Below are positions 556-23,600 of a stretch of DNA of 26,472 bases, piece after piece. A model generated the notes under the pieces. That model ran no database searches. It worked only from the letters and a program-made list of their open reading frames with translations, and was not told the origin of the DNA. Within the stretch, counting starts at the first letter, position 1. Each line of letters opens with the position of its first letter. This DNA comes from a virus (lineage: Duplodnaviria > Heunggongvirae > Uroviricota > Caudoviricetes): the IMG/VR virus record IMGVR_UViG_2630968705_000016. One strand, given 5' to 3'. Position numbers and translations under genes: made by a program.

Positions 556-820
556 AACTAAAGAAAGTTCATAGGTAGGAGTATGCAATGACATATTGTT
601 TGAAATTTATACTATAAAATTAAACGATTAACAGTTTTATACTATATCAAAGCAGATTCAGGACATTTGAGTAGTGAGATAATCGCTTTATTATAGCATC
701 CATATTATGTCGAACATTGTTGCGAAGCCTCTGTAAGGTTAATGCTTGTTTTTATTATAACTATTTGATATGTTGAGTTTTAGATTGCAATATTAATGTC
801 AGTTTAGCGATAAAGGGGAG

Positions 821-3105: not shown

Positions 3106-3917
3106 ATTTTATATGTTGTGATTAATTAATCATCTAGTCACCCAATGAGTATTACAAAGTATATTTTATGCTGGAATGCAAATTGGGTGAGTTATTATAT
3201 AATGGTGATTGGTCATTAAGTGCTGTAGGGCATATATATTAAAAATAAATATGTCTATTTCTGGAAACTACAAAGTATTGGCAAGGTTTTATTATGCTAA
3301 AGGTGTTATTTTATTATTTTAAAATACCTTAGTGTCCATCGTTTATTTTTATTATAAATCAATCTTAAATTTTACAATGCTGATGTATTGCAATTAAAAA
3401 AATGGCTTAAGCTTATTTTTCTTGTTTTTGATATAAATATTAATGTTGTGTTTTTTTTAAAATAAACATTTAACTCATAACTATTATAGTTAATAAAAAG
3501 AAAATAATATTTTATTATATACTATTGAGTTAGTATTCCGTATTGGCGATTTAATTGAAAGATAACGAAATTCTTCCGCCACCGCTTTGAGTTGCGAGAA
3601 AAGTCATCTATTCGAATGCGTATTATGGAATCATGGTTTCATTAATGGTTATTCAGTAGAGAACCATCTTCATCTGGCACAAAATAACGATAGTTATGAC
3701 TGTCTACATCTCGGAAATATAATAATTTTTAATGCGACTTATTGCGGTTTCCTTTTCATATTACCTTGCAACGATCAGTTTTGTAGCTTATTTCTGCAAT
3801 AAAGTTATTTACAGTTTCGCGGTTTTTCTCTTGCATTTGTTCAGTAAAGCAACTTGCCAGCATACTGGACTGCACCTTAATCAGTTGGACGTCCAACTGA
3901 TTAAGGTGCATTTTTTT

Positions 3918-4399
3918 ATGGCAAAGCCAAAATATTCTCTCGAAACCAGTAATCATTATCTTGCCGGACATAATGGCGCACGTCGTATCGCTGAACGTTT
4001 TGGTGTTGAAGAAACATCAGTGCGACGCTGGGTAAGAGCCAGGCAACTCCACGGTATTGATGGTATTACATTGAAAAATGACCGTCACTCTCCTGAGTTT
4101 CGACTGACGGTTGTCCAGAGGGGTCTGAGTGAAGAACTTACCATGCGCGAGGATGCCGCACGGTTTAATATCTCAAATGAATCCGTTGTTAGGCACTGGG
4201 TGAAGATTTACAAAAACACTGGTGAAGAAGGACTTCTGAACATAAAACCAGGCCGGAGCAAGGACATGACAAAACCTCAAAAACACCTCCACTTACCGAT
4301 GCAGAACTGGAAAAGTTATCTCCCGAAGAACTGCGGACTCAACTCCGTTACCTTCGCGCAGAAAATGCCTATCTAAAAAAGCTGAAGGCCTTAGTTTAA
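3918..4399 (+). pseudogene. IS3-family transposase OrfA, frameshifted
   Basis: Starts MAKPKYSLETSNHYLAGHNGARRIAERFGV (HTH). The expected C-terminus ...ELRTQLRYLRAENAYLKKLKALV is readable only in a different frame from the N-terminal part, implying a frameshift near 4270-4300. Confidence 0.7.
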
Positions 4400-5266
4400 A
4401 GCGAGAAAAACGGGAGAAAGCCCGGATAATCAGTGAATTAAGGCTGAAGCATGCGCTCGGTGATCTTCTGCGTGCCGCGGGGATGTCCCGCAGTACGTGG
4501 TATCACAATATGAATGCCCTGAAGCGAGTGGACAGGCATGCCGGACTGAAAGACAAAAACAGAGAGATTTATCACTATCACAAAGGGCGTTATGGCTACC
4601 GCAGAATCACGCTCTCACTGGGAAACAGGGCTTGTTGGTAAACCATAAAACAGTGTAGCGGCTGATGGCAGAGCTGTCGCTCCGCTCTGTGATAAGGGTG
4701 AAGAAATATCGTTCTTGGAAAGGGGAAGTAGGCAAGGCTGCGCCCAACATCCTGAGCCGGAACTGTGGTGCAACGAAGGCCAACGAAAAATGGGTGACGG
4801 AAGTTACAGAATTCTCGGTACAGGGTAAAAAGCTGTACCTGTCGCCAGTTCTCGATCTGTTTAACCGGGAGATTATCTCCTACAGCCTGTCAGAAAGGCC
4901 GGTGATGTAGATGGTTAATACGATGCTGCACGATGCATTCCCAGTGATCGGCCCGGAGGATGCACTGTTGCTGCACACGGATCAGGGCTGGCAATATCGA
5001 ATGGCAGGCTATCAGGCAAAGTTAAAGGCTAAGGGAATGACACAAAGCATGTCGTGCAAGGGAAACTGCCTGGATAACGCAGTGATGGAGAACTTCTTCG
5101 GCACACTGAAATCGGAGTGTTTTTACCTGAACAGGTTCAGCGATCCAGATTAACTGAGGAAGGCTATAGAGGACTATATCCATTATTATAACAACGAGCG
5201 GATCAGCCTGAAATTAAAAGGCCTGAGTCCGGTAGAATACCGAATCCAGGCCCTGAAAACCGCTTA
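4381..5266 (+). pseudogene. IS3-family transposase OrfB (DDE integrase core), disrupted
   Basis: OrfB-like sequence (…WVTEVTEF…[23 protein letters not shown]…, …LLLHTDQGWQY…CLDNAVMENFFGTLKSE…) is split across frames, with a frame break near 4640 and in-frame stops at 4908-4910 (TAG) and 5151-5153 (TAA). Confidence 0.7.
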
Positions 5267-5438
5267 ATATGAGCTGTCCAACTTTATGGGGCAGTCCATA
5301 AGTGGGCTTCTATGTCACTAAAGAGCTGCGGCTCCTTTGCGTATCCTTTTTTGTCTCCTCACCGTCTGGTCGGTGTCTTACTTAGACTGCTAACTTCTTG
5401 TTTTTATTGGTGTTGTCCTTACACCGTCCAATCATGAT

Positions 5439-5466
5439 TGGTGGAGCTGGCGGGAGTTGAACCCGC
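5439..5466 (-). other. tmRNA (ssrA) 3'-end fragment, likely att-site remnant
   Basis: Minus strand reads GCGGGTTCAACTCCCGCCAGCTCCACCA, matching the 3' terminal 28 nt of E. coli ssrA as I recall it. Flanking sequence does not continue as ssrA. Confidence 0.6.
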
Positions 5467-5767
5467 AGACACGTCGTATGCAAGAACTTGCTGCGGCTGG
5501 ATGGTGGACTTTCGATAGTGCGAGTATTGAATGATTTCCATCTATTATAGATTTTACCGTATTTCGGCATGAATGAAACTGAATATCCTCCCACCGACCC
5601 TCCATGACTTTACACCACTGTCTCTGGGGCTGCTATGTGCCAGTAGAGGACGTTGCTAGTGTCAGCCTATGTTAATCAACAGGGAGCAGGTCACACTGTC
5701 GTCTCAGAATACCTAGCGCATAGGTCACACGAACTTCCAACTGTATTGCTTGTTTTCGTGGCTAAGC

Positions 5768-6907
5768 CTATTTTTGTTGATGATACCAATGCAACATCAT
5801 CCGGAGCTTCAATAGAGTTGTACTGTCATCATCCTCAGAACAAAAATTGTATCGCCCGCCTGAATATTCATTTAACTTGTCCAAGTAAAAGCCACCCATT
5901 GGGTCATATCTATCAGAGTGGAGCCAAGTAAACATTTTCTGAAGAACGTAATGCAGGGCATTTTTCGGAAGTGTTGAAATCAACACGCCATGCTTAGTTG
6001 CTAAATCCTCAATATTCATTTCCTGAAGATTATATCTAATCTCTACTGCAATTGGATGTAGTTTACTTAAAAATACGTCAGCTTCATCCTTGAGATGTGC
6101 CTCTTTAACATTCCCCTCGAACAACTTTATTAACTCTTCCACTTCCATTCGGTAATAATCGTTATCACCTCGCACCGCAACTTCTGAAAGAAGCAACTTT
6201 AACTCAGCATGAATGTTATCAGTAGACGGTATAATCTGTTTGGATAGGGTGCTGTAATGTTTTATACGGATTGCTATTACGGAACCCTTTAGGCTTGTTA
6301 GATATTTATACCTATCTTCAATATATGTAATTAGCTCATCGAATTTAATGCCGAAAATAACATCATCTTTCCCTGGCGTGTTGTTGTAAAGGCTTATAGT
6401 GAAATCATTTTCATTGAAAGCATGAAAATGAGGCCAGCTTGCAAACAGTCGCTCACCATCACTATTTTTAAGATTTGTAGGGTGAGCACCAAAGATAGCT
6501 CGAATACTCTTAAAGTATGCGTCATCATCCTCATGTGAAAGATAGGGCGTTTTATTCTTAAAGACATTCGTTGATTTCTTGAAAGGCCACCTCGCTAACT
6601 TATCATCACTCTCAATGATGCGGTGAAGCTGCTGCAACGCCTCCACAGCAATATCAATAGATGATATAAGGCAGTAAACCTGCATGGCCTTGACATCAAT
6701 ATCTTCCGACAGCTCAGGGAAGTTCATCAGATTGCGAACAGAAACGCTTATCCAATCCATGCACGAACAGATAGGGCTGAACTGGTTTTTACCATTTCTG
6801 TTTATGAAGTAGCTGTAAGCAAACTCCCCTTCATTAACCACATCTCGAAAATCAGTTATTAAAGTATCATCAATAGTTACACCAAAATCTGCCTTGGTCA
6901 TCTTCAT
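5768..6907 (-). CDS. Hypothetical protein (about 379 aa), AT-rich orphan gene
   Basis: Long minus-strand ORF. The six-frame track starts at a TTG (6922); the first ATG is at 6907 and a second at 6901. No clear SD. No domain recognised by eye. Confidence 0.75.
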   Translation of the reverse strand: MKMTKADFGVTIDDTLITDFRDVVNEGEFAYSYFINRNGKNQFSPICSCMDWISVSVRNLMNFPELSEDIDVKAMQVYCLISSIDIAVEALQQLHRIIESDDKLARWPFKKSTNVFKNKTPYLSHEDDDAYFKSIRAIFGAHPTNLKNSDGERLFASWPHFHAFNENDFTISLYNNTPGKDDVIFGIKFDELITYIEDRYKYLTSLKGSVIAIRIKHYSTLSKQIIPSTDNIHAELKLLLSEVAVRGDNDYYRMEVEELIKLFEGNVKEAHLKDEADVFLSKLHPIAVEIRYNLQEMNIEDLATKHGVLISTLPKNALHYVLQKMFTWLHSDRYDPMGGFYLDKLNEYSGGRYNFCSEDDDSTTLLKLRMMLHWYHQQK

Positions 6908-7301
6908 GGAAATCACTTTCAAATCAGCACACTTAGAGGTTGATTGTGACCGTTATCATAGGCAAAAACAATTCAGTAGGTTGACCAGCCCCCCCCCATA
7001 ACGCAAAATTGCTCGATTTAAGTATGCATTCCAACTTCCGCTCCTCGCTCATAACAGACATTCACTACAGTTATGGTAGAAGGTATGCATGCTGGGTGGG
7101 GAAAGTATGAAGGAAAAGAAGGCTGCTGTGTCGTTTGACATCACTGCAATCTTCTTATTGGTTATGCGGGTCGTAGTGGGACAAAACTGAGACACATAAG
7201 GCCTAGCAATGGCTTGCAAGGCTTTACATGTTTTGATGTGGTGGGACTTGTGAGCGCAGTGTTGATGGGGTAATGCTTTGAATTAGAAGCGGATTCTTAT
7301 A

Positions 7302-7347
7302 ATTCGTAATGCGAAGGTCGTAGGTTCGACTCCTATTATCGGCACCA
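7302..7347 (+). other. Partial tRNA-Thr(CGU) (thrW-like) 3' portion; integrase att core
   Basis: ATTCGTAATGCGAAGGTCGTAGGTTCGACTCCTATTATCGGCACCA matches the anticodon loop through the CCA end of E. coli tRNA-Thr(CGU). The 5' half (GCCGATATAGCTCAG...) is absent upstream. Confidence 0.7.
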
Positions 7348-7364
7348 TTCAAACATCTCCCCAA

Positions 7365-7450
7365 GTCTACTAAAGTCTTTCAAAACCCCTTATAATCCGC
7401 GTATTAAAGCCCCGTTCGTCTTTTGACGTCTACTAAAGTCCCTCAAAATC
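7365..7450 (+). promoter_or_regulatory. Two direct repeats (GTCTACTAAAGTCyyTCAAAA), putative integrase arm-type binding sites
   Basis: Near-identical 21-23 bp copies at 7365-7386 and 7428-7450, between the tRNA fragment and the integrase start. Confidence 0.4.
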
Positions 7451-7512
7451 TACGGTCAGATGGGGGTACTTATGGGGGTATTTGCTGTTCGGTTTAGTGG
7501 AGGTACCCCCAA

Positions 7513-8727
7513 GTGAAACTCAATGCCCGTCAAATAGACACAGCCAAGCCAAAAGAGAAGGCTTACAAGCTGGCCGATGGTGGCGGTTTGTATCTCTTGG
7601 TAAAACCTAATGGAGGTAAATACTGGCGACTTAAATATCGTGTAGCTGGTAAAGAGAAGCTATTGGCACTAGGTGTGTATCCTGAGGTTACTCTAGCCGA
7701 TGCTCGGGCAAAACGAGAAGATGCGAAAAGAGGTATCGCTGGTGGTATCGATCCGATGGAAGCGAAACGAGAGGAAAAGATTGCCCGGGAAACGCAGTTA
7801 AACAACACCTTCAAAGATATTGCCCTTGAGTGGCACAGCAGCAAATTAAAAAAATGGTCTGCTGGTTATGCTTCAGACATCCTCGAAGCCTTCAACAAAG
7901 ATGTGTTCCCTTACATTGGCAAAAAACCAATCGCCGAAATCAAACCACTTGAACTTCTGAATGTGCTGCGGCGCATCGAGGGGCGCGGTGCGACAGAAAA
8001 AGCCAAAAAAGTGAGGCAGCGGTGCGGGGAAGTTTTCCGTTATGCAATAGTCACTGGTCGCGCAGAGTATAACCCTGCACCAGACCTTACTAGCGCGATG
8101 CAAGGCCATGAATCTAATCATTACCCTTTCCTTACGACCAAAGAATTACCTGATTTTTTCAAGGCATTGTCCAGTTACTCAGGAAGCGCATTGGTTGTTA
8201 TGGCGGCTCGTCTACTGATTATCACCGGCTTGCGAACTGGCGAACTACGTGGCGCATTATGGGATGAAATTGATTTCAACAAGGCTATATGGGAGATACC
8301 CGCTTCACGTATGAAAATGCGGCGGCCTCATATTGTGCCATTGTCTGAGCAGGCTCTTTCGCTTATTGGGAAGATTAGAGAAATAACAGGCAATTACCCT
8401 CTTATGTTTCCCGGGCGCAATGATCCAAGGAAAACAATGAGTGAGGCCAGCATAAACCAAGTGTTTAAGCGCATTGGCTACGCTGGACGTGTAACTGGTC
8501 ATGGGTTCCGACACACTATGAGCACGATTTTGCATGAGCAGGGCTATAACACCGCGTGGATAGAAACGCAGCTCGCTCACGTTGATAAGAACTCAATTCG
8601 TGGCACATACAACCATGCGCAATATCTGGATGGACGGCGGGAGATGCTTCAATGGTATGCCGACTATATGGATTCTCTCGAGCATGGCGGAAATGTGGTG
8701 CATATGGTGTTTGAAAAACACGCATGA
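7513..8727 (+). CDS. int: Tyrosine recombinase, P4-type phage integrase
   Basis: 404 aa, GTG start with GGAGG RBS. N-terminal signature (KLNARQIDTAKPKEK...DGGGLYLLVKPNGGKYWRLKYR) typical of P4-family integrases. Catalytic elements GLRTGELR, HGFRHT and RGTYNHA (R, HxxR, Y) present. Confidence 0.93.
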   Translation: MKLNARQIDTAKPKEKAYKLADGGGLYLLVKPNGGKYWRLKYRVAGKEKLLALGVYPEVTLADARAKREDAKRGIAGGIDPMEAKREEKIARETQLNNTFKDIALEWHSSKLKKWSAGYASDILEAFNKDVFPYIGKKPIAEIKPLELLNVLRRIEGRGATEKAKKVRQRCGEVFRYAIVTGRAEYNPAPDLTSAMQGHESNHYPFLTTKELPDFFKALSSYSGSALVVMAARLLIITGLRTGELRGALWDEIDFNKAIWEIPASRMKMRRPHIVPLSEQALSLIGKIREITGNYPLMFPGRNDPRKTMSEASINQVFKRIGYAGRVTGHGFRHTMSTILHEQGYNTAWIETQLAHVDKNSIRGTYNHAQYLDGRREMLQWYADYMDSLEHGGNVVHMVFEKHA

Positions 8728-9154
8728 AACAACTGGACAAGTATACAGAGGTTTACTAAAGTATAGGGGAGTAGATTGATAAAAACTCACAGAGGATTGC
8801 TATTTAACAGTTAGCCCTGGAGAAGGGCAATCGCTCTTTTATAAACGAAGGTGTATTGAGCCTTCTACGCTGCTGAAAAGCGGAATGTTCTTTAACAGGC
8901 TTTGGCGCTGACAAAGCGCAATTGTTCTTTAAAACTACTGGATGTCACGCCTAATAGCGTGATCCTGCCGAAATGCAGGGTAGCTCTACCCTTGTGGAGC
9001 AAACAAACCAAAACAATCTGACTATCTTTTATAAAAGACCGCAATATGTTTTTCATATTGTGGTCTTTGGCGTATTCGACATTTGACGCAAATAAAACTC
9101 TCGCCATTCGTTGCAGGAGGGGGTTATTGCGTCATTAGTACAGGATATTAATAA

Positions 9155-9358
9155 ATGGCTAATTACAATTCATTAATTCGTCTCTCTGAAGTTCAAAGGC
9201 GAACTGGTTATAGCAAAGCATGGATTTATCGTCTTATTAGTCAGGGGAGGTTCCCTAAACAGGTAAAAATTGGAAGTCGGGCAATTGCTTTTGTTGAGTC
9301 TGAAATAGATGAATGGATTGAGAAGTGTATATTAGAATCTAGAGACGAGGTGGCCTGA
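9155..9358 (+). CDS. alpA: AlpA-family transcriptional regulator / excisionase-like protein
   Basis: 67 aa; IRLSEVQRRTGYSKAWIYRLISQGRFPKQVKIG...ESEIDEWI matches the AlpA/Vis HTH pattern. Confidence 0.85.
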   Translation: MANYNSLIRLSEVQRRTGYSKAWIYRLISQGRFPKQVKIGSRAIAFVESEIDEWIEKCILESRDEVA

Positions 9359-9789
9359 TGGAAAAGAAAAACCGCCCATTACAGGCGGCTAATTCAGATA
9401 TTCGCGTATCTGATGTTACGCCCCTGACAAAATCCCTTCAAGCACCAAAGCGCACACCGAAAAAGCATCGTGCCAGAGTCTATATGCTGCGTACTGGTAT
9501 AGAGGGATGGACAGAAAATGACATTCTTCGCTACTGCCGTCTGTCTTCTGGTCGTAACTATGCAACAGAGTTAGAACGCCAGCTTGGAATCACTCTGGAG
9601 CGTATCGACGAAAAGAATCCTGATGGTATCGGAACACACCTTCGCTACCGTTTCTCCTGCCGTGGTGATGTTCTGAAAGTGATCACTCATGTTAACCATC
9701 TTGCGAACATAAATGATCACAACGGACTTTCTCAGCAGGAAATTGCCGACATTCTGAAACTCTACCCGAACGCGTTTAACGCCGCCTAA
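9358..9789 (+). CDS. Hypothetical phage-island protein
   Basis: 143-aa ORF whose ATG overlaps the alpA stop by 1 nt; no domain recognised. Confidence 0.65.
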   Translation: MEKKNRPLQAANSDIRVSDVTPLTKSLQAPKRTPKKHRARVYMLRTGIEGWTENDILRYCRLSSGRNYATELERQLGITLERIDEKNPDGIGTHLRYRFSCRGDVLKVITHVNHLANINDHNGLSQQEIADILKLYPNAFNAA

Positions 9790-9801
9790 CGGAGACTGAA
9801 A

Positions 9802-10635
9802 ATGAACATCGAAAAAAGCAGATTAATTTCTGAGGCCGCCCCTCATCTGAACGCCTCTCTGGGCACAATTAACGGTAATGAATTTGCCGCAATTGTCCCG
9901 GTTATTCCTGGTCATATCGGTGGGCGTGAAACCAATATTGTTAGCGCAAAAGCGTTACACAAAGCGTTGGGCGTGGGAAAAGACTTCTCTACATGGATCA
10001 CTGATCGCATCTCTGAATATGACTTCACCATTGGGCACGATTACTCAGTCCATAAAACAATTTCCCCAAATTTGGGGAAAAGCCCGAATGACGCGGCTTA
10101 CAGCAAGATTAAGCAGTCTGGCAGACCCGGCAAAGACTATCTGTTAAGTGTCGGAATGGCGAAAGAACTGGCAATGATCGAACGCAATGATCAGGGGCGC
10201 GCTATCCGCCGTTATTTCATCCAGTGCGAGGAAGAATTACAGCGTAGCGTGCCTGAAATCGCCGCCCGCTATCGTCGCCAGCTAAAAGCCCGTATCAGTG
10301 CCGCAAACAACTTTAAGCCAATGTGCGATGCGCTGAATATGGCCCGTGCCGAGATGGGTAAAACGACGCAGCAACACCACTACACAAACGAGAGCAATAT
10401 GATTTCTCGTATCGTTCTTGGTGGGCTAACTGCTAAACAGTGGGCGCGGATAAATGGCTATTCTGGCGAACCTCGCGACCATATGAACGCAGAACAGCTT
10501 GAGCACCTCTCATATCTCGAAAGCACCAATATCACGTTAATTGATATGGGCATGGAATATGAGCAGCGCAAAGGAGAACTCACCCGCCTGTCGCAACGCT
10601 GGCTCGCCAAGCGTCTGGAGGCGGTCCATGTTTAA
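9802..10635 (+). CDS. Phage antirepressor-like protein (KilAC-type C-terminal domain)
   Basis: 277 aa, GGAGA RBS. The segment DYLLSVGMAKELAMIERNDQGRAIRRYFIQCEE resembles the KilAC antirepressor domain. Confidence 0.8.
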   Translation: MNIEKSRLISEAAPHLNASLGTINGNEFAAIVPVIPGHIGGRETNIVSAKALHKALGVGKDFSTWITDRISEYDFTIGHDYSVHKTISPNLGKSPNDAAYSKIKQSGRPGKDYLLSVGMAKELAMIERNDQGRAIRRYFIQCEEELQRSVPEIAARYRRQLKARISAANNFKPMCDALNMARAEMGKTTQQHHYTNESNMISRIVLGGLTAKQWARINGYSGEPRDHMNAEQLEHLSYLESTNITLIDMGMEYEQRKGELTRLSQRWLAKRLEAVHV

Positions 10636-10807
10636 GCCGACAGGAACACCACAACCTCAAAAACGCTACAAAGATGCCCACGGAGCACTCGTTACTGTCG
10701 AAAGCGTGTCTCACAACCGAGTGACGTTTTATCGCGACGGGTATCAATCGCCATGCGTACAACCGCTGGCGCGTTTCATGAAGGAGTTCGCGGAGGTTAA
10801 CCAATGA
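10628..10807 (+). CDS. Small hypothetical protein (59 aa), possibly DUF4222-like
   Basis: ATG at 10628 overlaps the upstream stop (ATGTTTAA). Sequence MFKPTGTPQPQKRYKDAHGALVTVESVSHNRVTFYRDGYQSPCVQPLARFMKEFAEV. Confidence 0.45.
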   Translation: MFKPTGTPQPQKRYKDAHGALVTVESVSHNRVTFYRDGYQSPCVQPLARFMKEFAEVNQ

Positions 10808-11241
10808 TACCCATCCAGAAGAAGACATTTTCACTGGCTGGTATGTCGCCAAAATCCAGAAATATGACGGCAAAGTCAGGCATTAATACAGCAGATACAA
10901 GCAAAGTTTATCATTTGCTGGTGGCCGGAACGGATGCCTTAACCATACCAGAAATCTCGGGCGATGATATTAGCCTTGAGAAGGTCAGCGGCTGCGCCAG
11001 AAAATTTCTGGTCGTAGATGATGTCTTCCGCTCGTGTAGTGACTCCACAAAAACATTCGTCCACGCGCGTGACGTTAACGAAATGAGCGCGATGTACTGT
11101 GCTTCTGGTTCTTCCAATAGTGAGTTTTCGGAGTCCATAAAAAAGAGCTTGCCGTTATGCGGCAACACGGTTTATGGTTATAAGGCACCTCATAAAACGG
11201 GTGCCGGGTTTCGCAGCCCGGAAATGTACGAGGCGACACAT

Positions 11242-11263
11242 GACGCGCCGAGCGTCTTTTTTT
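11242..11263 (+). terminator. Rho-independent terminator-like hairpin plus T7 run
   Basis: GACGC-GCCGA-GCGTC hairpin (11242-11256) followed by TTTTTTT (11257-11263). Lies inside the annotated 355-aa ORF 10804-11871. Confidence 0.5.
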
Positions 11264-11465
11264 GTGCCGTTAGCCAGACTCACACTTTTTTCAGTGATGT
11301 GGTTATAATCCGCGTCGCTTGCAAAATTATGGTGGGCTGGACAGGGCAGCCGAAAGGCTGGCCGGTTTCCTTGTACGCCGGTACTGCGAACTCTGTTCAG
11401 TCCACCACCAGCGAGTTTCGCAGCTCCGGTGGTGGGAAGAATTCCCAGTACAAGGAGGCTGCCAC

Positions 11466-11660
11466 ATGCTGGCTACTACCCCTACCCAAAAACCGCAATT
11501 TATCTGGATTATCGCCGCAGTTCGCCGCGATTGCCCGACAATTACCGCCAAAATTCATCATATTGCTGCCGAGTCTGAACGCGATGCTCGCCGTTCTCTG
11601 GTGCGCGATCACGTCTGCTTTTTTGCTGGTCGTATCCGCATGGAGGTGGCACATGATTAA
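11466..11660 (+). CDS. Small hypothetical protein (64 aa)
   Basis: ATG preceded by AAGGAGG RBS; codon usage (ctg, gcc, cgc) is much more gene-like than the overlapping frame of the long ORF. MLATTPTQKPQFIWIIAAVRRDCPTITAKIHH... Confidence 0.55.
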   Translation: MLATTPTQKPQFIWIIAAVRRDCPTITAKIHHIAAESERDARRSLVRDHVCFFAGRIRMEVAHD

Positions 11661-11871
11661 AACCTACGATGTGCATATGGATCCCCTCGAACGCACAAGC
11701 CAGATCATCACACTGACAGAAGTGATTAACGACATTCTGGTGAGCAACTCTCCCTCACGAGACGAAAGACTGAAGGCGTTACTCGCGATATTGGATCTCG
11801 CCGTTCGTGACGTTCATTTCCTGCTGGAAGGTGGCGAAATGCCAGGAAAAACGGGGGCAACCAATGAATAA
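11655..11871 (+). CDS. Small hypothetical protein (72 aa)
   Basis: Internal ATG of the long ORF with GGAGGTGG RBS; overlaps the upstream stop (ATGATTAA). MIKTYDVHMDPLERTSQIITLTEVINDIL... Confidence 0.5.
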
Positions 11872-12058
11872 CTCAATTAATGCCCCTCGACTTACGTCCG
11901 CACTTCAATTAATCGAGCAAGCAGCGGCTGTCCTGGTTGCTGTCAGTCTTTCGGCTGAAGAAATGGACGCTGCTGATGTCGTGGATGCGATTAAAGCGTG
12001 CTCATCTTTGGTTAACGATGCTCGTGCAGAGCTGGTAATTCTTGGTGGTGAAAAATGA
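11864..12058 (+). CDS. Small hypothetical protein (64 aa)
   Basis: ATG at 11864 overlapping the upstream stop; MNNSINAPRLTSALQLIEQAAAVLVAV... The track ORF begins further upstream at 11807. Confidence 0.5.
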   Translation: MNNSINAPRLTSALQLIEQAAAVLVAVSLSAEEMDAADVVDAIKACSSLVNDARAELVILGGEK

Positions 12059-12318
12059 ATATCAACTTAATTTATCGTCATCCGTGTGAGCTGGAAATTG
12101 AATCATTGCTGAGCCGTGAAGAGCCATATCCAGACACATTCACTCTTGCAGATCGCACGACTGAACGGCTTACCAGGGCGCGCACAGGTCTGGTTCATGT
12201 GATGAATGAGATTCTTCCATCGGTGGGAGGGGAACAGGCGACAGTAATCACTAGCTGGCTACAAAAAGTTACCTCTCTGATAGATATCAGTTTAATCGAT
12301 GCGGAGAGTGCGAAATGA
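12055..12318 (+). CDS. Small hypothetical protein (87 aa)
   Basis: Start overlaps upstream stop (ATGA); part of a coupled run of small genes. Confidence 0.55.
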   Translation: MNINLIYRHPCELEIESLLSREEPYPDTFTLADRTTERLTRARTGLVHVMNEILPSVGGEQATVITSWLQKVTSLIDISLIDAESAK

Positions 12319-12536
12319 CCAACATCCAGCTCATTGAAGCACAATGTCGCATCGAACAGGTTCAGACTGTTTTAGGGTTCTGGCTTGAAGGGGCCAGCCC
12401 CAGCAACAGAGACAAGTTAATGATTGGCGCGGTTATGTCACTGCTCAATGGCGTACCAGAAGCTATTCAGGAAGCAGACGAATTGTTGGGCAAATATGAG
12501 TTACAGAATCATTCAGGCGAGGCGAAACATGAATAA
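12315..12536 (+). CDS. Small hypothetical protein (73 aa)
   Basis: ATGA overlap with the upstream gene; same operon. Confidence 0.55.
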   Translation: MTNIQLIEAQCRIEQVQTVLGFWLEGASPSNRDKLMIGAVMSLLNGVPEAIQEADELLGKYELQNHSGEAKHE

Positions 12537-13131
12537 TTTCTTAACTTTCCATGCAGAAGCAACGCCTGACGGCGTAAACATCATGTACCGCAGCAACGAT
12601 GGCATGACAGAACGCGTTGAGGCCGTCTCATATATTGATGCCGTAAATCGTCTGGATGCCGGGGATTATGACGATAAACCAGATGAAGGTATGTCAATAC
12701 ATCTCGCTATAGCCGATGGCGGCAACCAGGGATATTTCGATTACACATCACAGCATAACGTCATTATGTGGAGATGGCTGATCGCAACAGTATTCATGCT
12801 GGAAATGAGAGAGGAAAACGGCACTGTCAGCATCATTGATGATACTGGCAACCCTTCCGAAGTGGCTGTTTATTCCAACGGCATCGTCGCCATGCCGCTG
12901 TATCCAGTAGCAGAGCGCCTCGCTATGGCAAACAACATTGAGGGCGCGATGATAGAACGTTTTGGCATCGAGTCTGGCACAGAACGCGCCATCATTTTCT
13001 ACAGAGCCATGATGGATGTGGAACAAGGAGCACTGACTCCATTTGGTCGTGAAACGCTTGCTGAACTTCACAACAGCTTTATAGCTGAACTGAATGAAAA
13101 CGGCATGCCAGCGGAACCAGTGACGCACTGA
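12526..13131 (+). CDS. Hypothetical protein (201 aa)
   Basis: ATG at 12526 overlapping the upstream stop (ATGAATAA). The track ORF begins upstream at 12424, but that would overlap the previous gene out of frame. Confidence 0.6.
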   Translation, partial: NMNNFLTFHAEATPDGVNIMYRSNDGMTERVEAVSYIDAVNRLDAGDYDDKPDEGMSIHLAIADGGNQGYFDYTSQHNVIMWRWLIATVFMLEMREENGTVSIIDDTGNPSEVAVYSNGIVAMPLYPVAERLAMANNIEGAMIERFGIESGTERAIIFYRAMMDVEQGALTPFGRETLAELHNSFIAELNENGMPAEPVTH

Positions 13132-13141
13132 GGATGGAACC

Positions 13142-13483
13142 ATGATTACTAAAAATTTCCGACTGAATGCGCTGGCAAATAAGTATGCGTCGGCACTGTA
13201 TAACCACATTACCTCCACCAGCGGCGGGGACTATTTCATGGTTGATGCGGACGGCGAGGCCGTCCGTGTGGAAATCGTCAATGGAGTAAAAGGCGTTCGC
13301 AGCCTGATCGATAGCTACACACTGGCAGCCATGAAAGTGTTCTACCCGCAGTGGGAAACCGTGGGGATCGAGCTTCTTGATCGTTGCGTCACTAAGGACG
13401 GATTGACTGACGTCGGGCGTGAGATATGGCAAAGCATGGTTAATGACATGGGCGCAACTGTAGCGGGAGGTTCTCATGCGTGA
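13142..13483 (+). CDS. Hypothetical protein (113 aa)
   Basis: ORF with GAGGATGG context upstream; the stop overlaps the next start. Confidence 0.6.
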   Translation: MITKNFRLNALANKYASALYNHITSTSGGDYFMVDADGEAVRVEIVNGVKGVRSLIDSYTLAAMKVFYPQWETVGIELLDRCVTKDGLTDVGREIWQSMVNDMGATVAGGSHA

Positions 13484-13847
13484 AAATGCAGAAATGGCGC
13501 TTAGCTCCGCAATCGGAGAGCAGGTGGCAAAGATTGCTGGTGCTGTGTGGATTCATAACCTTCATTCTACTGGTGAAGAGAAAATGGCAATTCAGACGCC
13601 AGAGGGACGCATCATTACTACATCTCTGAAGCCGTCAGATGTTTGTGATCTGATTTGCGCATTCATGTACCCAGCAATGAGGACTGCCCACGGCGATAAG
13701 TGGAAACTTGCGACAACCGCTGAATTTGATATGTGGCTAAACAATGATGGCATGCTGACTGATTACGGAATAACCAAGTGGCAGATGCTGGTTAGCCATA
13801 TCGCAAACGCTATAGACCACGTGGGGTACGGTGATGCGAAACATTGA
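13476..13847 (+). CDS. Hypothetical protein (123 aa)
   Basis: ORF with GGGAGG RBS upstream; 3' end overlaps the primase start. Confidence 0.6.
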   Translation: MRENAEMALSSAIGEQVAKIAGAVWIHNLHSTGEEKMAIQTPEGRIITTSLKPSDVCDLICAFMYPAMRTAHGDKWKLATTAEFDMWLNNDGMLTDYGITKWQMLVSHIANAIDHVGYGDAKH

Positions 13848-16590
13848 TCTTATCCGTCAGGTTATCAGTGCGTCTGAAAACAACTGGCCTCATGTGCTGG
13901 GCTGCCTGAACATAAATGTCCCTGACTCTCCGCGCCGTCATGCTCCCTGCCCTGCATGTGGGGGCAAAGATCGATTCCGGTTCGATGACAACGGGCGCGG
14001 TAGCTTCATCTGTAATCAGTGCGGCGCTGGTGATGGGCTGGATTTAATTAAACGCGTAAATAACTGCGACACAACAGAGGCGGCGCTTCTTGCCGCTGAT
14101 GTTCTGGGTATTGATTACCGGACAACGGAAACACCAGAAGCCACCAGCCAGAAACGGGAACAACTGGAAACCGAGCGCCAGCGACGCGAACAGGAGCGCC
14201 TGAAAAGGGCAGAGAAGGACGAACAACAAAGACGGGATACGTTTTCCCGTCAGTTTGATGACATGCGCAGAAAGGCTGTAAACGGCAAATCTGATTATCT
14301 GGTTGCGAAAGTGGTAGGTGATTTTACATTCCCCGTGTTGCCCGATGGATCTCTGTTGCTGGCGCTGGTGGATAAATCCGGCGCAGTCACAGCAGCACAG
14401 ACTATTACCTCACATGGTGAAAAAAGACTCCTGACAGGTTCAGCAAAGCGGGGGGCATATCACGCCATAAACGCACCAGAAACAACACAGAGCATCTTAA
14501 TCGCAGAAGGGCTGGCAACGGCATTATCTGCCCATTTAATTCGTCCAGAGGCGCTGACAGTGGCGGCGATTGATGCCGGGAACCTGTTATATGTCGCCCA
14601 GGTACTGCGGGATAAATATCCTTCAGCACAAATCATCATTGCTGCGGATAACGACCACAGCGAAGGAAGACAAAACACGGGGAGAATAGCAGCAGAAAAA
14701 GCAGCTTTATCTGTTTCTGGATGGGTGGCATTACCCCCGACAGATCACAAAGCAGACTGGAATGATTACCACCAAAAACACGGCATTAAATGCGCCACAG
14801 AAGCGTTCAATAAGTCAATGTACCAACCACAGGGTAATGGCGTGAAACAGGAGCCACAGACCATTGAGGGAAGCGATTTTAAGGTTATGGATACCGACCC
14901 ACTGAAACCAAGAATAGAAAGCCGCGAGGATGGTATTTATTGGGTATCTCCGAGAGCTGACAGCCAGAGTGGAGAAATCATCAATAACGAAAGCTGGTTA
15001 TGTTCTCCGTTAAGCGTTATCGGTACTGGCAGAGACGATAAAGACCAGTATCTCATTCTTCGCTGGCTGTCGTTTGGTTCTGAAACGCCGACAACCGCTG
15101 CCATTCCACTGGCTGATATTGGTGAACGTGAAGGATGGCGCACACTTAAAGCTGGTGGGGTAAATGTCACGACCAAAAGCAGCCTCAGAGCAATACTGGC
15201 AGACTGGCTACAACGCAGTGGCTCTCGTGAATTGTGGCGTGTTGCTCATGCCACTGGCTGGCAATGCGGAGCGTACATCATGCCTGATGGGGAAATCATC
15301 GGAACACCTGAAAATCCTGTGCTGTTCAGCGGGAGAAGCTCAGCCGCAGCCGGATATACCGTCTCAGGGAGCGCGAAAAGCTGGCGTGATAACGTGGCGC
15401 GTCTGGCCTTTGGTAACTATTCAATGATGACCGGGATCGGCGCAGCACTGGCAGCGCCATTGATTGGGCTGGTGGGCGCTGACGGGTTCGGCATTCATTT
15501 CTATGAGCAGTCGAGCGCAGGTAAGACCACCACGGCAAACGTGGCGAGCAGCTTATACGGCAACCCTGATTTACTGCGGCTGACGTGGTACGGAACCGCG
15601 CTGGGGCTGGCAAATGAGGCCGCCGCCCACAATGACGGACTAATGCCGCTTGATGAAGTTGGTCAGGGCGCTGATCCTGTCAGCGTTTCACAGTCTGCCT
15701 ATGCGTTATTTAACGGTGTAGGGAAACTGCAAGGCGCTAAAGATGGTGGAAACCGGGATCTAAAACGTTGGCGTACAGTGGCAATCAGCACCGGAGAAAT
15801 GGATTTAGAAACATTTATCGCTACTTCCGGGCGAAAAACCAAAGCCGGGCAACTGGTGCGACTGCTGAATATTCCGTTGAGTAAAGCAGTACGCTTTCAC
15901 GATTACCAGAACGGAAAACAGCACGCAGACGCACTGAAAGACGCTTACCAGCATCACCACGGCGCGTCCGGGCGTGAGTGGATTAAATGGCTGGCAGACC
16001 ACCAGCAACAGGCTATTAAAACCGTTCGTGATTGCGAAAGCAGATGGAGAAGCCTGATCCCATCCGATTATGGTGAGCAGGTTCACCGTGTAGCCGCGCG
16101 ATTTGCCATTCTGGAGGCCGCATTGTTGTTAGGCGAGGTTGTAACAGGCTGGGATGCTCAGACATGCCGTGATGCGATACAGCACAGCTATAACGCATGG
16201 TTGCGTGAGTTCGGCACAGGTAACAAAGAGCATCAGCAGATTATTGAACAAACGGAGGCATTTCTTAATGCCTATGGGCTTAGCCGTTTTGCACCATTTT
16301 CATACAGCCCGGCAGATTTGCCCATCAAAGATTTAGCCGGATACCGTCAGCGTGGAGAACATGACGAAAGCCCAATGATTTTCTACACATTCCCGGCCAC
16401 ATTTGAAAAGGAGATCGCATGTGGTTTCAACGCAAAACAGTTTGCTGAAGTGTTGAAAAAAGCCGGGATGCTAACCCCACCAAACAGCGGTCGTGGATAC
16501 CAAAGAAAATCACCACGTATTCAGGGACGACAAATAAACGTTTATGTACTCAATTACCAGCCAGGAGATTATAACTCATCTGAAGAATGA
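13831..16590 (+). CDS. Primase-helicase (P4 alpha-like: zinc ribbon + Toprim primase + P-loop helicase)
   Basis: 919 aa. CPACGG...FICNQCG zinc-binding motif; Toprim-like AEGLATA and IIIAADNDHSEG (DxD); Walker A SSAGKTTT and Walker B-like LMPLDEV. Start could be the GTG at 13831 or the ATG at 13834. Confidence 0.9.
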   Translation: MMRNIDLIRQVISASENNWPHVLGCLNINVPDSPRRHAPCPACGGKDRFRFDDNGRGSFICNQCGAGDGLDLIKRVNNCDTTEAALLAADVLGIDYRTTETPEATSQKREQLETERQRREQERLKRAEKDEQQRRDTFSRQFDDMRRKAVNGKSDYLVAKVVGDFTFPVLPDGSLLLALVDKSGAVTAAQTITSHGEKRLLTGSAKRGAYHAINAPETTQSILIAEGLATALSAHLIRPEALTVAAIDAGNLLYVAQVLRDKYPSAQIIIAADNDHSEGRQNTGRIAAEKAALSVSGWVALPPTDHKADWNDYHQKHGIKCATEAFNKSMYQPQGNGVKQEPQTIEGSDFKVMDTDPLKPRIESREDGIYWVSPRADSQSGEIINNESWLCSPLSVIGTGRDDKDQYLILRWLSFGSETPTTAAIPLADIGEREGWRTLKAGGVNVTTKSSLRAILADWLQRSGSRELWRVAHATGWQCGAYIMPDGEIIGTPENPVLFSGRSSAAAGYTVSGSAKSWRDNVARLAFGNYSMMTGIGAALAAPLIGLVGADGFGIHFYEQSSAGKTTTANVASSLYGNPDLLRLTWYGTALGLANEAAAHNDGLMPLDEVGQGADPVSVSQSAYALFNGVGKLQGAKDGGNRDLKRWRTVAISTGEMDLETFIATSGRKTKAGQLVRLLNIPLSKAVRFHDYQNGKQHADALKDAYQHHHGASGREWIKWLADHQQQAIKTVRDCESRWRSLIPSDYGEQVHRVAARFAILEAALLLGEVVTGWDAQTCRDAIQHSYNAWLREFGTGNKEHQQIIEQTEAFLNAYGLSRFAPFSYSPADLPIKDLAGYRQRGEHDESPMIFYTFPATFEKEIACGFNAKQFAEVLKKAGMLTPPNSGRGYQRKSPRIQGRQINVYVLNYQPGDYNSSEE

Positions 16591-16615
16591 GCTTCTTCAT
16601 GTGCGTAGAAAAGGT

Positions 16616-16726
16616 GTTGGTTCAGTTGGTTCAGTTGGTTCAATTTGTAAAGAGTATTGTTTTATAATGATTTTATTCTTTTTATTGAACCAACACTGAA
16701 CCAACAACACGGTATTTTGAACCAAC
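16616..16726. repeat. Iteron cluster 1 (putative replication origin)
   Basis: Three perfect tandem GTTGGTTCA 9-mers (16616-16642), an AT-rich spacer, then three TGAACCAAC inverted copies (16686-16694, 16697-16705, 16718-16726). Begins 26 bp after the primase stop. Confidence 0.75.
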
Positions 16727-17046
16727 ACAATGTGACTGAATTGATGCGCACAACACCTGGCTGGCATCAGAGAGTGTTTTACGAGACTTTCGTAAAATCC
16801 TGTGTACAAGGGCGTGACGTTTTTGAAAGTGAGCACTACGAAATTTTCGTAGTTCAAAAAACAGCCTCTGAGAAGTTGTTATGCCTGTTCAGCAAACCAT
16901 CCGCATAGCTGATCGCGAATCAAATTACCAATGGAGCCAGAAGCAAGGGCAGAACTGAAAAGCGCCTGCCGTGAAGAGTAATGCGACACCATAAATATAG
17001 TTTTTAGAGTCCATAAAAAACCTGTCAAAACCTGACACACAGAACG

Positions 17047-17080
17047 ATGCCACCAGCTACTGAGCGGTGGCATTTTTTTG
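17047..17080 (+). terminator. Rho-independent terminator
   Basis: Perfect 8-bp stem ATGCCACC/GGTGGCAT with an 11-nt loop, followed by TTTTTTT (17074-17080). Confidence 0.7.
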
Positions 17081-17174
17081 TGCTATTTGTTTCATATTTT
17101 GCAATTACGATGATGAATATTGCGATTTGTGAAACTATAATAACTGTTGTTTTATACAGTTCTAAGGGGGCGTT

Positions 17175-17336
17175 ATGGCTATTTCAGTAAAGCCGGTATT
17201 GATAAGTGAGAAGCAAATGGAAGCGATAAAGAAAATTCAGGAAGAGCAGCGTAAAAAATCAGGAATTGGAGTAGCGCCAACTCTGCATGAAATTGCACGA
17301 GGGTTAATAGATAAGGCGCTGGCAGGCTGTATGTGA
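17175..17336 (+). CDS. Small hypothetical protein (53 aa), possible DNA-binding regulator
   Basis: Strong RBS AAGGGGG 5 nt upstream of ATG; MAISVKPVLISEKQMEAIKKIQEEQRKK... Not on the ORF track because it is under 60 aa. Confidence 0.5.
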   Translation: MAISVKPVLISEKQMEAIKKIQEEQRKKSGIGVAPTLHEIARGLIDKALAGCM

Positions 17337-17352
17337 AAATGGATGGCATCGC

Positions 17353-17814
17353 ATGGAACTAAAATTTATTGATAACCCTGTGCGATTACAGGCCTTTCTT
17401 AACGAGCCAGGCAATACCGAAAATATTGTTGAGCCGGGGCACACGTACTACATCAAGCCTGATGCGGTATATCTCGGCATCTACGAAGGATTAGTGCTGG
17501 CTGGCGTTCATGAAGTGCGTAACTTCTGGCATAGCGTTGTTGAATGCCATGCGGTGTACGACCCCGGATTCCGTGGTGAATATGCACTGCAAGGGCATCG
17601 ATTATTCTGCAAATGGCTTCTCGAAAACTCACCATTCCTTAACAGCATTACCATGGTTCCTGACACCACCAAATACGGACGGGCAATTATCCGTTTGCTT
17701 GGCGCTACCCGTGTTGGTCACCTTGATGATGCTTATATCAGATGTGGTAAACCCGTCGGCGTAACGCTTTATCAGTTAACTCGGCAACAATATAAGGAAT
17801 TCAGCGAATGTTAA
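17353..17814 (+). CDS. Hypothetical protein (153 aa), first gene of the ejection-like cassette
   Basis: ORF coupled to the downstream gene (ATGTTAA overlap); no domain recognised. Confidence 0.7.
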   Translation: MELKFIDNPVRLQAFLNEPGNTENIVEPGHTYYIKPDAVYLGIYEGLVLAGVHEVRNFWHSVVECHAVYDPGFRGEYALQGHRLFCKWLLENSPFLNSITMVPDTTKYGRAIIRLLGATRVGHLDDAYIRCGKPVGVTLYQLTRQQYKEFSEC

Positions 17815-18485
17815 TTACCCACATAGCTCATAAACATCTCAATCGTGCCGTATACGAAAAAGGCGGTGATGGTGGTGCCTCTAAAGCTCAGGCGAAGGCC
17901 CAGCAGCAGGCAATTGATTTGCAGCGCGAGCAGTGGAATACGGTGATGAATAATCTCAAGCCGTATGCAGAAGTCGGATTGCCTGCTTTACAACAACTAC
18001 AAGGACTGATGACTCTGGAAGGGCAGAATAAAGCCGCGAATGATTTCTTTGGTTCTGGTTTATATAAAACACAGGCAGATCAGGCCCGTTATCAGAACCT
18101 TGTCTCAGCAGAAGCTACCGGGGGGCTTGGCTCAACAGCTACCAGTAACCAGTTATCTTCCATTGCGCCCATGCTTTATAACAATTGGCTCAGTGGGCAA
18201 ATGCAAAATTATGGAAACCTGCTAAATGTCGGGATGAATGCGGCATCAGGGCAGGCAACGGCAGGGCAAAACTACGCCAATAATACCGGACAACTCTTGC
18301 AGGGGCTTGGCGCTATTCGTGCAGGTCAGGCGCAGCAGCCATCCAGTCTTGCGCGTGGTATTGGTGGGGCAGCATCAGGCGCTTTAGCGGGTGCGCAACT
18401 TGGTTCCGTTGTTCCTGGAATAGGAACTGCGGCCGGCGCTATTGGTGGTGGGCTTATTGGTCTTGTTGGGGGGCTTGGATTCTAA
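17808..18485 (+). CDS. Hypothetical protein with glycine-zipper-like C-terminus (225 aa), internal-virion/ejection-like
   Basis: Q/A/N/G-rich; C-terminal GIGGAASGALAGAQLGSVVPGIGTAAGAIGGGLIGLVGGLGF suggests a membrane-inserting glycine zipper. Coupled to flanking genes. Confidence 0.75.
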   Translation: MLITHIAHKHLNRAVYEKGGDGGASKAQAKAQQQAIDLQREQWNTVMNNLKPYAEVGLPALQQLQGLMTLEGQNKAANDFFGSGLYKTQADQARYQNLVSAEATGGLGSTATSNQLSSIAPMLYNNWLSGQMQNYGNLLNVGMNAASGQATAGQNYANNTGQLLQGLGAIRAGQAQQPSSLARGIGGAASGALAGAQLGSVVPGIGTAAGAIGGGLIGLVGGLGF

Positions 18486-22521: not shown

Positions 22522-22671
22522 ACGCTCTAACTAACAAAACCATAATAGCCAAGGACGGCATACTGATATTGAGCCAACTATCAAAATTCCATATCACATT
22601 ACGAGCCTGTGGCTTACATTCGCTTACAGTGATGATAATTTATAACCACGCAATTCTTAGGTGAGATTATC

Positions 22672-23370: not shown

Positions 23371-23377
23371 CTAATAA

Positions 23378-23427
23378 GCCCGGTACGCCGGGCATTCATG
23401 CCCCTATTATTCATGAATCGCTTTTTC
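23378..23427 (+). terminator. Terminator-like tandem hairpins downstream of the lipoprotein gene
   Basis: GCCCGG-TACG-CCGGGC hairpin (23378-23393), then ATTCATG...CATGAAT hairpin (23394-23418), followed by CGCTTTTTC. Confidence 0.4.
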
Positions 23428-23584
23428 TGGAAGGTATGCGACAAACGTTAAGTGACATTGCCTACACATTCGGGGCTCAAATCCGCTCCCAGTTGATGGG
23501 GCCGTTACAGTACGCGCATATCCGCTTTATGTGAAACAGGAAGATTTTTCTGATATCACTGCCACAGCAAAACACCAATTTCGA

Positions 23585-23600
23585 GACAAGTACGCGCGCG
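23585..23600. repeat. GACAAGTACGCGCGCG motif, copy 1
   Basis: Exact 16-mer with an alternating (CG) tract; a degenerate copy (GACCAGTACGCACACG) follows at about 23638-23653. Confidence 0.6.

Follow-up and report, generated by a model that had tools for sequence, protein, structure and literature searches.

The virus record IMGVR_UViG_2630968705_000016 of IMG/VR (Duplodnaviria; Heunggongvirae; Uroviricota; Caudoviricetes) comprises 26,472 nucleotides (nt) of DNA, which were analysed as a whole and are referred to here as the window. On its plus strand lies a long open reading frame (ORF), 10804-11871, of 355 amino acids (aa), within which are found, in order, a small RNA of the IsrK/seqA type, an antisense RNA of the C4/CI type, and a leader that runs up to a small gene of the icd/kil type. 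An initial annotation, made from the sequence letters, had noted inside this ORF a hairpin followed by seven T residues, a TATAAT hexamer, a highly structured segment and a strong ribosome-binding site, and had proposed an immunity RNA region in the style of satellite phage P4. All of these features are present, and that they lie far beyond chance is confirmed by Rfam scores, the folding of C4 and covariation. The region very probably serves a phage-inducible island of the EcCIMP1 type as its immunity (leader) module, with an RNA switch of the P4/P1 type and a translational override; the coordinates of its elements are collected in Table 1.

A scan of the whole window with Rfam at curated thresholds returned exactly two matches, both full length and both on the plus strand: isrK (RF01394; 69.0 bits against a cut-off of 50, E 5e-13, 11185-11262) and C4 antisense RNA (RF01695; 81.1 bits against a cut-off of 45, E 1e-14, 11325-11412, model positions 1-87). 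IsrK and C4 are the seqA and CI RNA of P4-like prophages (PMC3632133), and in P4 itself (NC_001609) Rfam places isrK at 8615-8692 and C4 at 8420-8507 on the minus strand, the strand of the left operon, in the same order as in the window. The pair is also present in Gifsy-1, SfV, Stx phage F004 and the P1-like RCS47. As the same Rfam pair is accompanied by a Kil/Icd homologue at 11466 and by a primase downstream, the analogy with P4 that had been drawn for this locus is in fact homology, and the region is, judged from its sequence, a homologue of the P4 immunity region PLE-seqA-cI-seqC-kil/eta and of the P1 c4 region. The small RNA expected between 11300 and 11460 corresponds to the C4 match. 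No tRNA or tmRNA that might explain the structure occurs in the window.

In 19 loci from other enterobacterial genera, collected through the Icd protein, C4 lies 50-54 nt 5' of icd in every case and isrK is found in 18, while among 80 loci added from IMG/VR, C4 is present in all 80 and isrK in 78; after this addition, 63 distinct leaders with IsrK were available. Moreover, a 1,801-bp (base pair) query covering the module was matched in 1,077 of 5,426 complete Escherichia coli genomes.

The C4 segment folds at -45.8 kcal/mol (z = -4.9), and none of 200 shuffled sequences folds as well. Covariation was assessed on an alignment of 20 leaders, each consisting of IsrK, C4 and the stretch to the start codon with the spacer removed. 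Across the intramolecular helices, 95.4% of the cells are paired and 28 of 44 pairs have changed on both sides; partner columns that were slid out of register are about 40% paired, and none of 500 shuffles reaches the observed values. The basal stem of C4 is 99.4% paired, with 10 of its 17 pairs changed on both sides. The CAGCC-GAAA-GGCTG hairpin that had been picked out earlier turns out to be the first inner hairpin of C4 (hairpin A), in which 5/5 pairs have changed on both sides, and the neighbouring hairpin B is nearly invariant. Directly 3' of the basal stem stands CCA (11408-11410), as in most homologues; CI and C4 are known substrates of RNase P (PMC5499578).

Two unpaired segments of C4, the loop b' and the junction a', are complementary to two sets of sites on the same transcript: a1 and b1, which lie inside IsrK, and a2 and b2, which lie between C4 and icd. 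In the 20 leaders, a'-a2 and b'-b2 together are 91.1% paired, compared with about 40% in the slid controls, and 13 of 18 pairs have changed on both sides; for a'-a1 and b'-b1 the values are 96.3% and 13 of 15. Thus, covariation demonstrates not only all the helices but also both sets of long-range pairing, and the folding and covariation check that had been proposed for this region came out in favor of the immunity RNA. The strongest duplex is b' with b2, which forms 13 bp at -19.7 kcal/mol (0/1000 shuffles as good), followed by b' with b1 and a' with a2 (both -13.5 kcal/mol) and a' with a1 (-12.6 kcal/mol); at places where b2 forms a Watson-Crick pair, b1 often forms G.U. Another b-type site, the third, lies at 16804 (GTACAAGG), with neither a Shine-Dalgarno sequence nor an a-site nearby, and was taken as chance. 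The 63 distinct leaders contain 29 different combinations of a' and b', and these variants look like specificity (immunity) types, which could set which islands exclude each other.

At the 3' end of C4, the 8-bp stem between CCACCACC and GGTGGTGG, which the initial annotation had counted as part of a structured leader, is real and conserved: it is 100% paired in the 20 sequences, and four of its eight pairs have changed on both sides. It is, however, an alternative helix in competition with the basal stem of C4: because CCACCACC also serves as the 3' strand of that stem, the two exclude each other. The tip of the alternative hairpin shows a2 (GTTTCGCAG, 11415-11423) on a 3-bp stem (11413-11415 with 11424-11426), so that this fold places a2 at the end of a long hairpin, as IsrK does with a1. 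The arms are complementary, by inspection, in SfV, Stx phage F004, RCS47 and Gifsy-1 as well. That the 3' strand of C4 has two partners, each backed by covariation, suggests that every transcript may choose between two folds, one to make C4 and the other to be a target. Directly 5' of b2, a small hairpin, GGGAA GAA TTCCC, has 5/5 pairs changed on both sides and is only 71% paired because the alignment is poor there.

IsrK likewise has helices that covary in relatives. Besides a score above the Rfam cut-off, it has two 5' hairpins followed by a terminator, and C4 directly downstream on the same strand. The terminator noticed at the outset, which a terminator scan also reports, closes off a small RNA of its own, IsrK/seqA, and is more than a terminator in front of the leader. 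Immediately upstream, inside the long ORF, lies a putative sigma-70-type promoter, the counterpart of P4 PLE, with -35 TTGCCG (11149-11154), a spacer of 18 nt and -10 TATGGT (11173-11178). At these positions TTGnnn is found in 37 and TAnnnT in 36 of 38 distinct upstream sequences. The full-length isrK match starts 7 nt 3' of the -10 element, and transcription would start at about G11185. A sigma-70 scan does not list this promoter because it matches 8 of 12 consensus positions and the scan requires 9.

Table 1. Elements of the immunity module and neighboring genes in the window
Feature	Position	Strand	Details and basis
alpA	9155-9358	+	Pfam
orf143	9358-9789	+	
antA/B	9802-10635	+	
DUF4222 gene	10628-10807	+	
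eta-like long ORF	10804..11871	+	355 aa; PGAP 'ash family protein'
Putative sigma-70-type promoter	11149..11178	+	inside long ORF; P4 PLE counterpart; conserved positions
IsrK/seqA-like small RNA	11185..11263	+	RF01394 match, terminator scan, covariation
IsrK hairpin 1	11185-11204	+	
IsrK hairpin 2	11208-11216 (a1)	+	displays a1 (GTTTCGCAG)
IsrK b1	11226-11233	+	GTACGAGG; single-stranded
IsrK intrinsic terminator	11242-11256, then T7 to 11263	+	GACGCGCCGAGCGTC; also in terminator scan
Spacer hairpin	11293..11319	+	10-bp stem, loop TTATAAT; folding, RNAalifold
C4/CI-type antisense (immunity) RNA	11325..11412	+	RF01695 full length, folding, covariation
C4 basal stem	11330-11346 with 11391-11407	+	17 bp
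C4 hairpin A	11347-11360	+	CAGCCGAAAGGCTG; CAGCC-GAAA-GGCTG hairpin
C4 hairpin B	11361-11382	+	12-nt loop b' 11366-11377
C4 3' junction a'	11384-11390	+	
Alternative hairpin	11402..11435	+	CCACCACC 11402-11409 pairs GGTGGTGG 11428-11435; covariation
Small hairpin	11434..11446	+	GGGAA GAA TTCCC; directly 5' of b2; covariation
b2 target site	11448..11458	+	GTACAAGGAGG; overlaps icd Shine-Dalgarno AAGGAGG 11452-11458
icd/kil-like gene	11466..11660	+	64 aa; NCBIfam NF033153, 71.7 bits; first gene controlled by the module
Next small gene	11653..11871	+	72 aa; ATG overlaps icd stop; same frame as long ORF
Primase (zinc ribbon, Toprim, DUF927)	13831..16590	+	replication gene of the operon

The TATAAT hexamer at 11304-11309, the only copy within 11001-11600, had been regarded as the promoter-like element of the region, and it may be asked whether it drives the C4 precursor independently of read-through at the IsrK terminator. 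It is a perfect -10 hexamer about 20 nt 5' of C4 with a T-rich stretch upstream, and among 47 leaders with long spacers it is exact in 33 and retained as TAnnnT in most others. On the other hand, it has neither a -35 element nor an extended -10 and is missing from the output of the promoter scan, and it forms the loop of a spacer hairpin that folds at -14.1 kcal/mol (z = -4.8) and has a covarying stem (RNAalifold on 11 loci: 14 pairs, 5 changed on both sides). The hairpin with its hexamer is absent from loci with spacers of 21-50 nt, which retain IsrK, C4 and icd. In addition, STnc1160, the C4-equivalent RNA of Gifsy-1, is lost when the isrK promoter is deleted (PMC4825925). A working promoter at TATAAT is therefore unlikely, and the hexamer is at most an auxiliary promoter; the conserved -35 and -10 elements upstream of IsrK fit the main role better. 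A second run of six T residues (11286-11291) follows shortly after the IsrK terminator (within 11264-11292); in front of it is a weak GTG...CAC pairing, which long-spacer loci have as well, and the run may be a second, weaker terminator.

What the short IsrK RNA does can be read in two ways. In the published model for Gifsy-1 (PMC4825925), in which C4 is not named, IsrK is a trans-activator, and IsrK of the island might likewise act mainly in trans, pairing with the a'/b' region so as to open the structure or titrate C4, thereby switching on translation of the frame downstream. In support, a1 and b1 are complementary to a' and b', IsrK pairs with the C4 loops in the predicted fold of the full leader, the G.U pairs of b1 opposite the Watson-Crick pairs of b2 are what a weaker competitor would be expected to have, and Gifsy-1 IsrK supplied in trans raises translation more than 100-fold. 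However, seqA of P4 has been described as a target that efficient termination and the establishment of immunity require (PMC3632133, PMC4825925). A role mainly as trans-activator is thus judged a minority possibility, and the roles of activator and target are not mutually exclusive.

The first gene behind the module, icd/kil, is the Kil/Icd homologue. Its product is 44% identical to P4 Kil (65 aa) over 57 aa by tblastn, with the common motifs AAVRR and RRSLVRD, and column entropy in its own frame (0.505/0.393/1.026 by codon position) displays clear third-position variability. The strong ribosome-binding site that had been noted for the gene at 11466 is AAGGAGG, 7 nt 5' of the ATG, and b2 overlaps it. 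In one variant among the IMG/VR leaders (L060, L063, L067, L070, L071, L074, L075 and L086) the start is GTG (GCCATTGTGGCTACT) rather than ATG. Nowhere in the region is the sequence as rich in C and as poor in G as in the first 100 nt of icd (GC skew -0.3 to -0.4). This composition would suit a Rho entry site at the place where one lies in P4, although it is no proof of it. The gene is unannotated in genomes where the long ORF is called; in L002 and E. coli MP1 it carries the label Icd-like. The next small gene has homologues directly after icd only in L004, L013, L014 and L018, and its product has no family match in Pfam/PHROG-type profile searches.

The long ORF is made of four parts: 10804-11148 is a variable N-terminal part, 11149-11465 covers promoter, IsrK, C4 and leader, 11466-11652 is read in +1 relative to icd, and 11653-11871 is in frame with the next gene. 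At its start, GGAGG (10792-10796) lies 7 nt 5' of the ATG, which overlaps the stop of the DUF4222 gene (ATGA). PGAP calls it an 'ash family protein', and Pfam PF10554 (Phage_ASH) matches no part of it but aa 124-232, at 99.7 bits; one may suppose a genuine regulatory protein with its domain at aa 124-232, the RNA-like features being incidental; several PHROG families of transcriptional regulators and repressors match the same segment, in otherwise different proteins. Yet this segment is nt 11173-11499, that is, it coincides with IsrK, C4 and the leader. Over these elements column entropy by codon position is 0.667/0.656/0.667, without the periodicity seen in icd, and therefore there is no sign of selection on the peptide; the matched segment lacks the third-position variability of a protein family, and its substitutions are instead compensatory for helices and long-range pairing. 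The flanking protein parts differ between families, and in P4 it is the ORF formerly called 'cI', lying over the CI RNA gene, that PF10554 matches. A true Ash protein is accordingly highly improbable as an account of this segment.

The epsilon gene of P4 (L003; 7888-8175) is matched by PF25738, and the 'cI' ORF matched by PF10554 spans 8168-8584. As a survey of P4-like satellites uses PF10554 as its epsilon ('Ash') profile (PMC8628076), that use conflicts with the matches in P4. More generally, matches to 'Ash family protein', common in the annotation of E. coli, phages and satellites, mark an RNA immunity module and not a protein domain, and calling the long ORF conceals the real icd/kil gene in many RefSeq records. 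From the same DNA, PGAP produces either the 355-aa ash protein without icd or an ash pseudogene together with an Icd-like gene. SfV orf37 ('immunity region') and an 'antirepressor' of a Salmonella phage likewise span both RNAs. In the RefSeq records H6 (NZ_CM148325.1) and H15 (NZ_CP051219.1), a small ORF in the part corresponding to about 10500-12300 of the window is misnamed 'nicotinic acetylcholine receptor subunit beta'.

If the peptide is not conserved, the long ORF could be an annotation artefact, with only the RNAs and icd functional and the frame open by chance or through G+C-rich structure. The missing periodicity over the RNA part fits such a view, as do the lack of any relative of the N-terminal 115 aa in the other genera, the varying PGAP calls, the absence of a long ORF from RCS47 and Gifsy-1, and the poor codons of the long frame over icd. 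The latter had been remarked on earlier as repeated CTA and CCC; the run is real (TGC TGG CTA CTA CCC CTA CCC, 11471-11491), but it is confined to icd, and codon usage is poor there because the long frame overlaps this gene out of frame.

The behavior of the frame itself speaks against chance. Exactly one plus-strand frame is stop-free from the promoter to icd in all 21 loci of the first set, whereas the minus strand is closed in 20 and has one open frame in the remaining one, and any open frame at all appears in only 3-27% (mean 9.6%) of dinucleotide shuffles. The distance from the 5' end of IsrK to the AUG of C4 takes seven values (102, 105, 114, 129, 132, 144 and 189 nt) in 62 of the 63 distinct leaders, all of them multiples of three, and in the same 62 the long frame meets no stop back to a point 36 nt or more 5' of IsrK. 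The sole exception, L088, has a distance of 143 nt, a difference of 1 nt, and its long frame is closed; this may reflect a recent frameshift or a sequencing error.

Beyond C4 the frame continues through icd, to which it is in +1 in the window because the spacing between Shine-Dalgarno sequence and ATG is one base shorter. Among 64 distinct leaders, 33 are of this '+1' type and 31 are nested, and the +1 frame of icd is stop-free in 33/33 of the former as against 7/31 of the latter, in which the stops are internal; such a pattern is what uninterrupted translation would require, with the reservation that these sequences are related and the numbers not independent. Together with the strong Shine-Dalgarno sequence and stop-start overlap at 10804, and with reports that the homologous frame is translated in P4 eta (PMC10111431) and as Gifsy-1 orf45, these regularities make an artefact improbable. 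The long ORF is instead the counterpart of P4's translated eta frame and not a plain annotation error.

The frame is thus kept without conservation of its peptide, and over the module it seems to be selected only for translatability. This suggests a constraint for the uninterrupted passage of ribosomes across the immunity switch and past the site where termination takes place in P4. Combined with the possible choice of each transcript between C4 and target, such frame selection with a +1 passage through icd makes up a joint reading, which goes further than what has been published on P4 and is put forward tentatively and as somewhat less probable than not. It also follows that ORF and RNA, which had been set against each other in the initial annotation, are not alternatives: the eta ORF of P4, which is translated, contains the genes for CI and seqA and also the constitutive promoter (PMC10111431). 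Proteomic evidence for the 355-aa product, formerly named as a refutation of the immunity RNA, would for this reason be no valid one.

From these homologies a mechanism can be proposed, for which we infer processing, termination, promoter activity and translational override from work on P4, P1 and Gifsy-1. In the repressed state, the constitutive promoter inside the long ORF would start transcription at about 11185. Part of the transcripts would end at the IsrK terminator and yield an RNA of about 78 nt, IsrK/seqA, while those reading through would be processed, by RNase P in P4 and P1, into C4/CI, a stable RNA about 80 nt long. The b' loop and a' junction of C4 would then pair with b2 and a2 just downstream, and since paired b2 covers the Shine-Dalgarno sequence of icd/kil, this gene would remain untranslated. 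The untranslated transcript would be terminated, as in P4, and the small genes and the primase would therefore be off. As the C4 loops also pair with b1 and a1, IsrK would be a second target or a decoy. The layout is that of P1 c4 (a1 b1 and a2 b2) and of P4 (seqA and seqC), where the leader of an operon gives rise to the antisense RNA that shuts the ribosome site of its first gene.

In the induced state, transcription would come from an upstream alpA promoter after induction of the helper. The chain alpA-orf143-antA/B-DUF4222 (9155..10807), whose genes overlap or nearly adjoin, probably feeds ribosomes into the long ORF, the coupling being suggested by overlaps of starts and stops. Ribosomes arriving in this way would read the long eta-like frame right through terminator, C4 and target sites, so that RNA control would be overridden. 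In P4, eta is translated only from the upstream late promoter, coupled to an alpA homologue, and its translation prevents termination (PMC10111431). A late promoter of the P2/P4 type was considered for the island and rejected, since the window has two matches to TGT-N12-ACA, which are far from alpA and fewer than expected by chance.

Several points weigh against the interpretation as an immunity module of the P4/P1 type with translational override. The start of transcription, processing and termination in this island are all read across from other systems. The override would need an upstream promoter, and the P2-type late-promoter dyad TGT-N12-ACA was not found upstream of alpA. The c4-a1b1 family (RF03163) reaches 22.5 bits at 11172-11224, below its cut-off of 46.7; in P4 it also stays slightly under, at 44.1 bits. 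Its position in the window fits nonetheless, and the pairing of a1 and b1 is borne out by covariation. The long frame is in +1 relative to icd, so the nested arrangement of P4 is not exactly reproduced, and the counts overstate independence because the compared loci are mutually related.

The window is 98.9% identical from 7302 to 23895 (16.6 kb), with the same gene order, to EcCIMP1, a phage-inducible island of E. coli MP1 that is mobilized by the P22-like phage Kapi1 (PMC11773190); in related genomes the island adjoins tRNA-Thr and proA. The paper on EcCIMP1 lists an 'Ash family protein', and the terms sRNA, antisense and non-coding do not occur in it (PMC11773190). EcCIMP1 therefore gains a predicted circuit of repression and override that is absent from its published description. 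As EcCIMP1 adds superinfection immunity, it was considered whether the C4 of the island targets the helper, and this was rejected: Kapi1 is without an IsrK/C4 module (no match with nhmmer), and it contains no paired a/b target sites, just scattered 8-9-mers.

Between the window and MP1 (L109), 35 of the 38 differences of 10780-11900 fall in 10802-11110 (codon positions 16/5/13). The RNA module has only one, by which a G.U pair in the spacer hairpin becomes G-C. The stretch 10802-11110 is about 11% diverged from EcCIMP1, with RNA module and icd almost identical, which suggests that a mosaic or recombinant junction lies close to the internal promoter.

Further observations concern the remainder of the window. 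Directly 3' of the primase, 16619-16726 contains three tandem GGTTCA(G/A)TT repeats, an A+T-rich stretch and three repeats of GAACCAAC in the opposite sense, and looks like an iteron-type replication origin. Past the primase, 17353-22521 carries virion and ejection genes of the P22 type, namely phrog_651 (head morphogenesis/DUF2824), phrog_598, phrog_917 and phrog_770 (lytic transglycosylase domain), and these gene families are those of Kapi1_055-058 of the helper. In the left part, 1-7301, there is no collinearity with the tRNA-Thr/proA surroundings that the island has in E. coli genomes. Homology begins at 7302, a position that in those genomes falls within tRNA-Thr, and a search of the window with ARAGORN yielded no tRNA. 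These 7.3 kb contain weak matches to GmrSD_N and HEPN_Apea and a transposase-type helix-turn-helix protein, and may be another element in tandem.

Among the systems already known, P4 comes closest. Both Rfam elements are shared in order and orientation, the Shine-Dalgarno context is near-identical (AGGAGGCUGCC), C4 ends 53-54 nt 5' of a homologous first gene of 64-65 aa, and the long ORF starts 5' of the internal promoter and spans both RNA genes, with a primase downstream that is 34% identical to the N-terminal part of P4 alpha; the integrases are 42% identical. In P4, the frame is open from 8821 to 8168, with ATGs at 8767, 8764 and 8761 giving 199, 198 and 197 aa, and Kil is its last 65 aa. 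Thus, kil is the in-frame C-terminal part of eta, whereas the long ORF of the window passes icd in +1 and continues into the next gene. The two differ further in pairing specificity (CTGCGAA/TTCGCAG in the window, TTCTCAC/GTGAGAA in P4), in the spacer between IsrK and C4 (62 nt against 107 nt), and in three extra genes that the window has between alpA and the long ORF. When all P4 proteins were searched by tblastn, only int, the N-terminus of alpha and eta/kil were found, alpA being recognized through Pfam; homologues of sid, psu, delta, epsilon and cII were not found in the window. The window thus lacks sid, psu and delta, the genes for capsid size and late control in the gene set of P4-like satellites (psu, delta, sid, alpA, epsilon, alpha, int; PMC8628076).

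The immI region of P1/P7 (a1 b1, c4, a2 b2, icd, ant) shares with the window the C4 fold, the a' and b' segments with targets up- and downstream, and a b2 that covers the ribosome-binding site of an Icd-type gene. It differs in that the antirepressor AntA/B of the window lies upstream of the module and not 3' of icd, that the window remains under the cut-off for c4-a1b1, and that P1-like RCS47 has only a 39-codon ORF over C4. In Gifsy-1, the region isrK-orf45-anrP-isrJ (PMC4825925) also has isrK followed by a C4 match (69 bits), at 34131-34214 on the minus strand (L027), with which orf45 coincides. This translated ORF of 45 codons starts at the conserved AUG in the 5' strand of C4, which is the frame of the long ORF in the window, and the orf45 region yields STnc1160, a processed RNA about 80 nt long (PMC4825925); unlike in the window, the downstream gene is an antirepressor rather than icd, and no long ORF begins upstream. 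The type of system is already well known and can be detected with Rfam, and what is new is a member in a characterized island together with the frame-shifted overlap of eta and kil.

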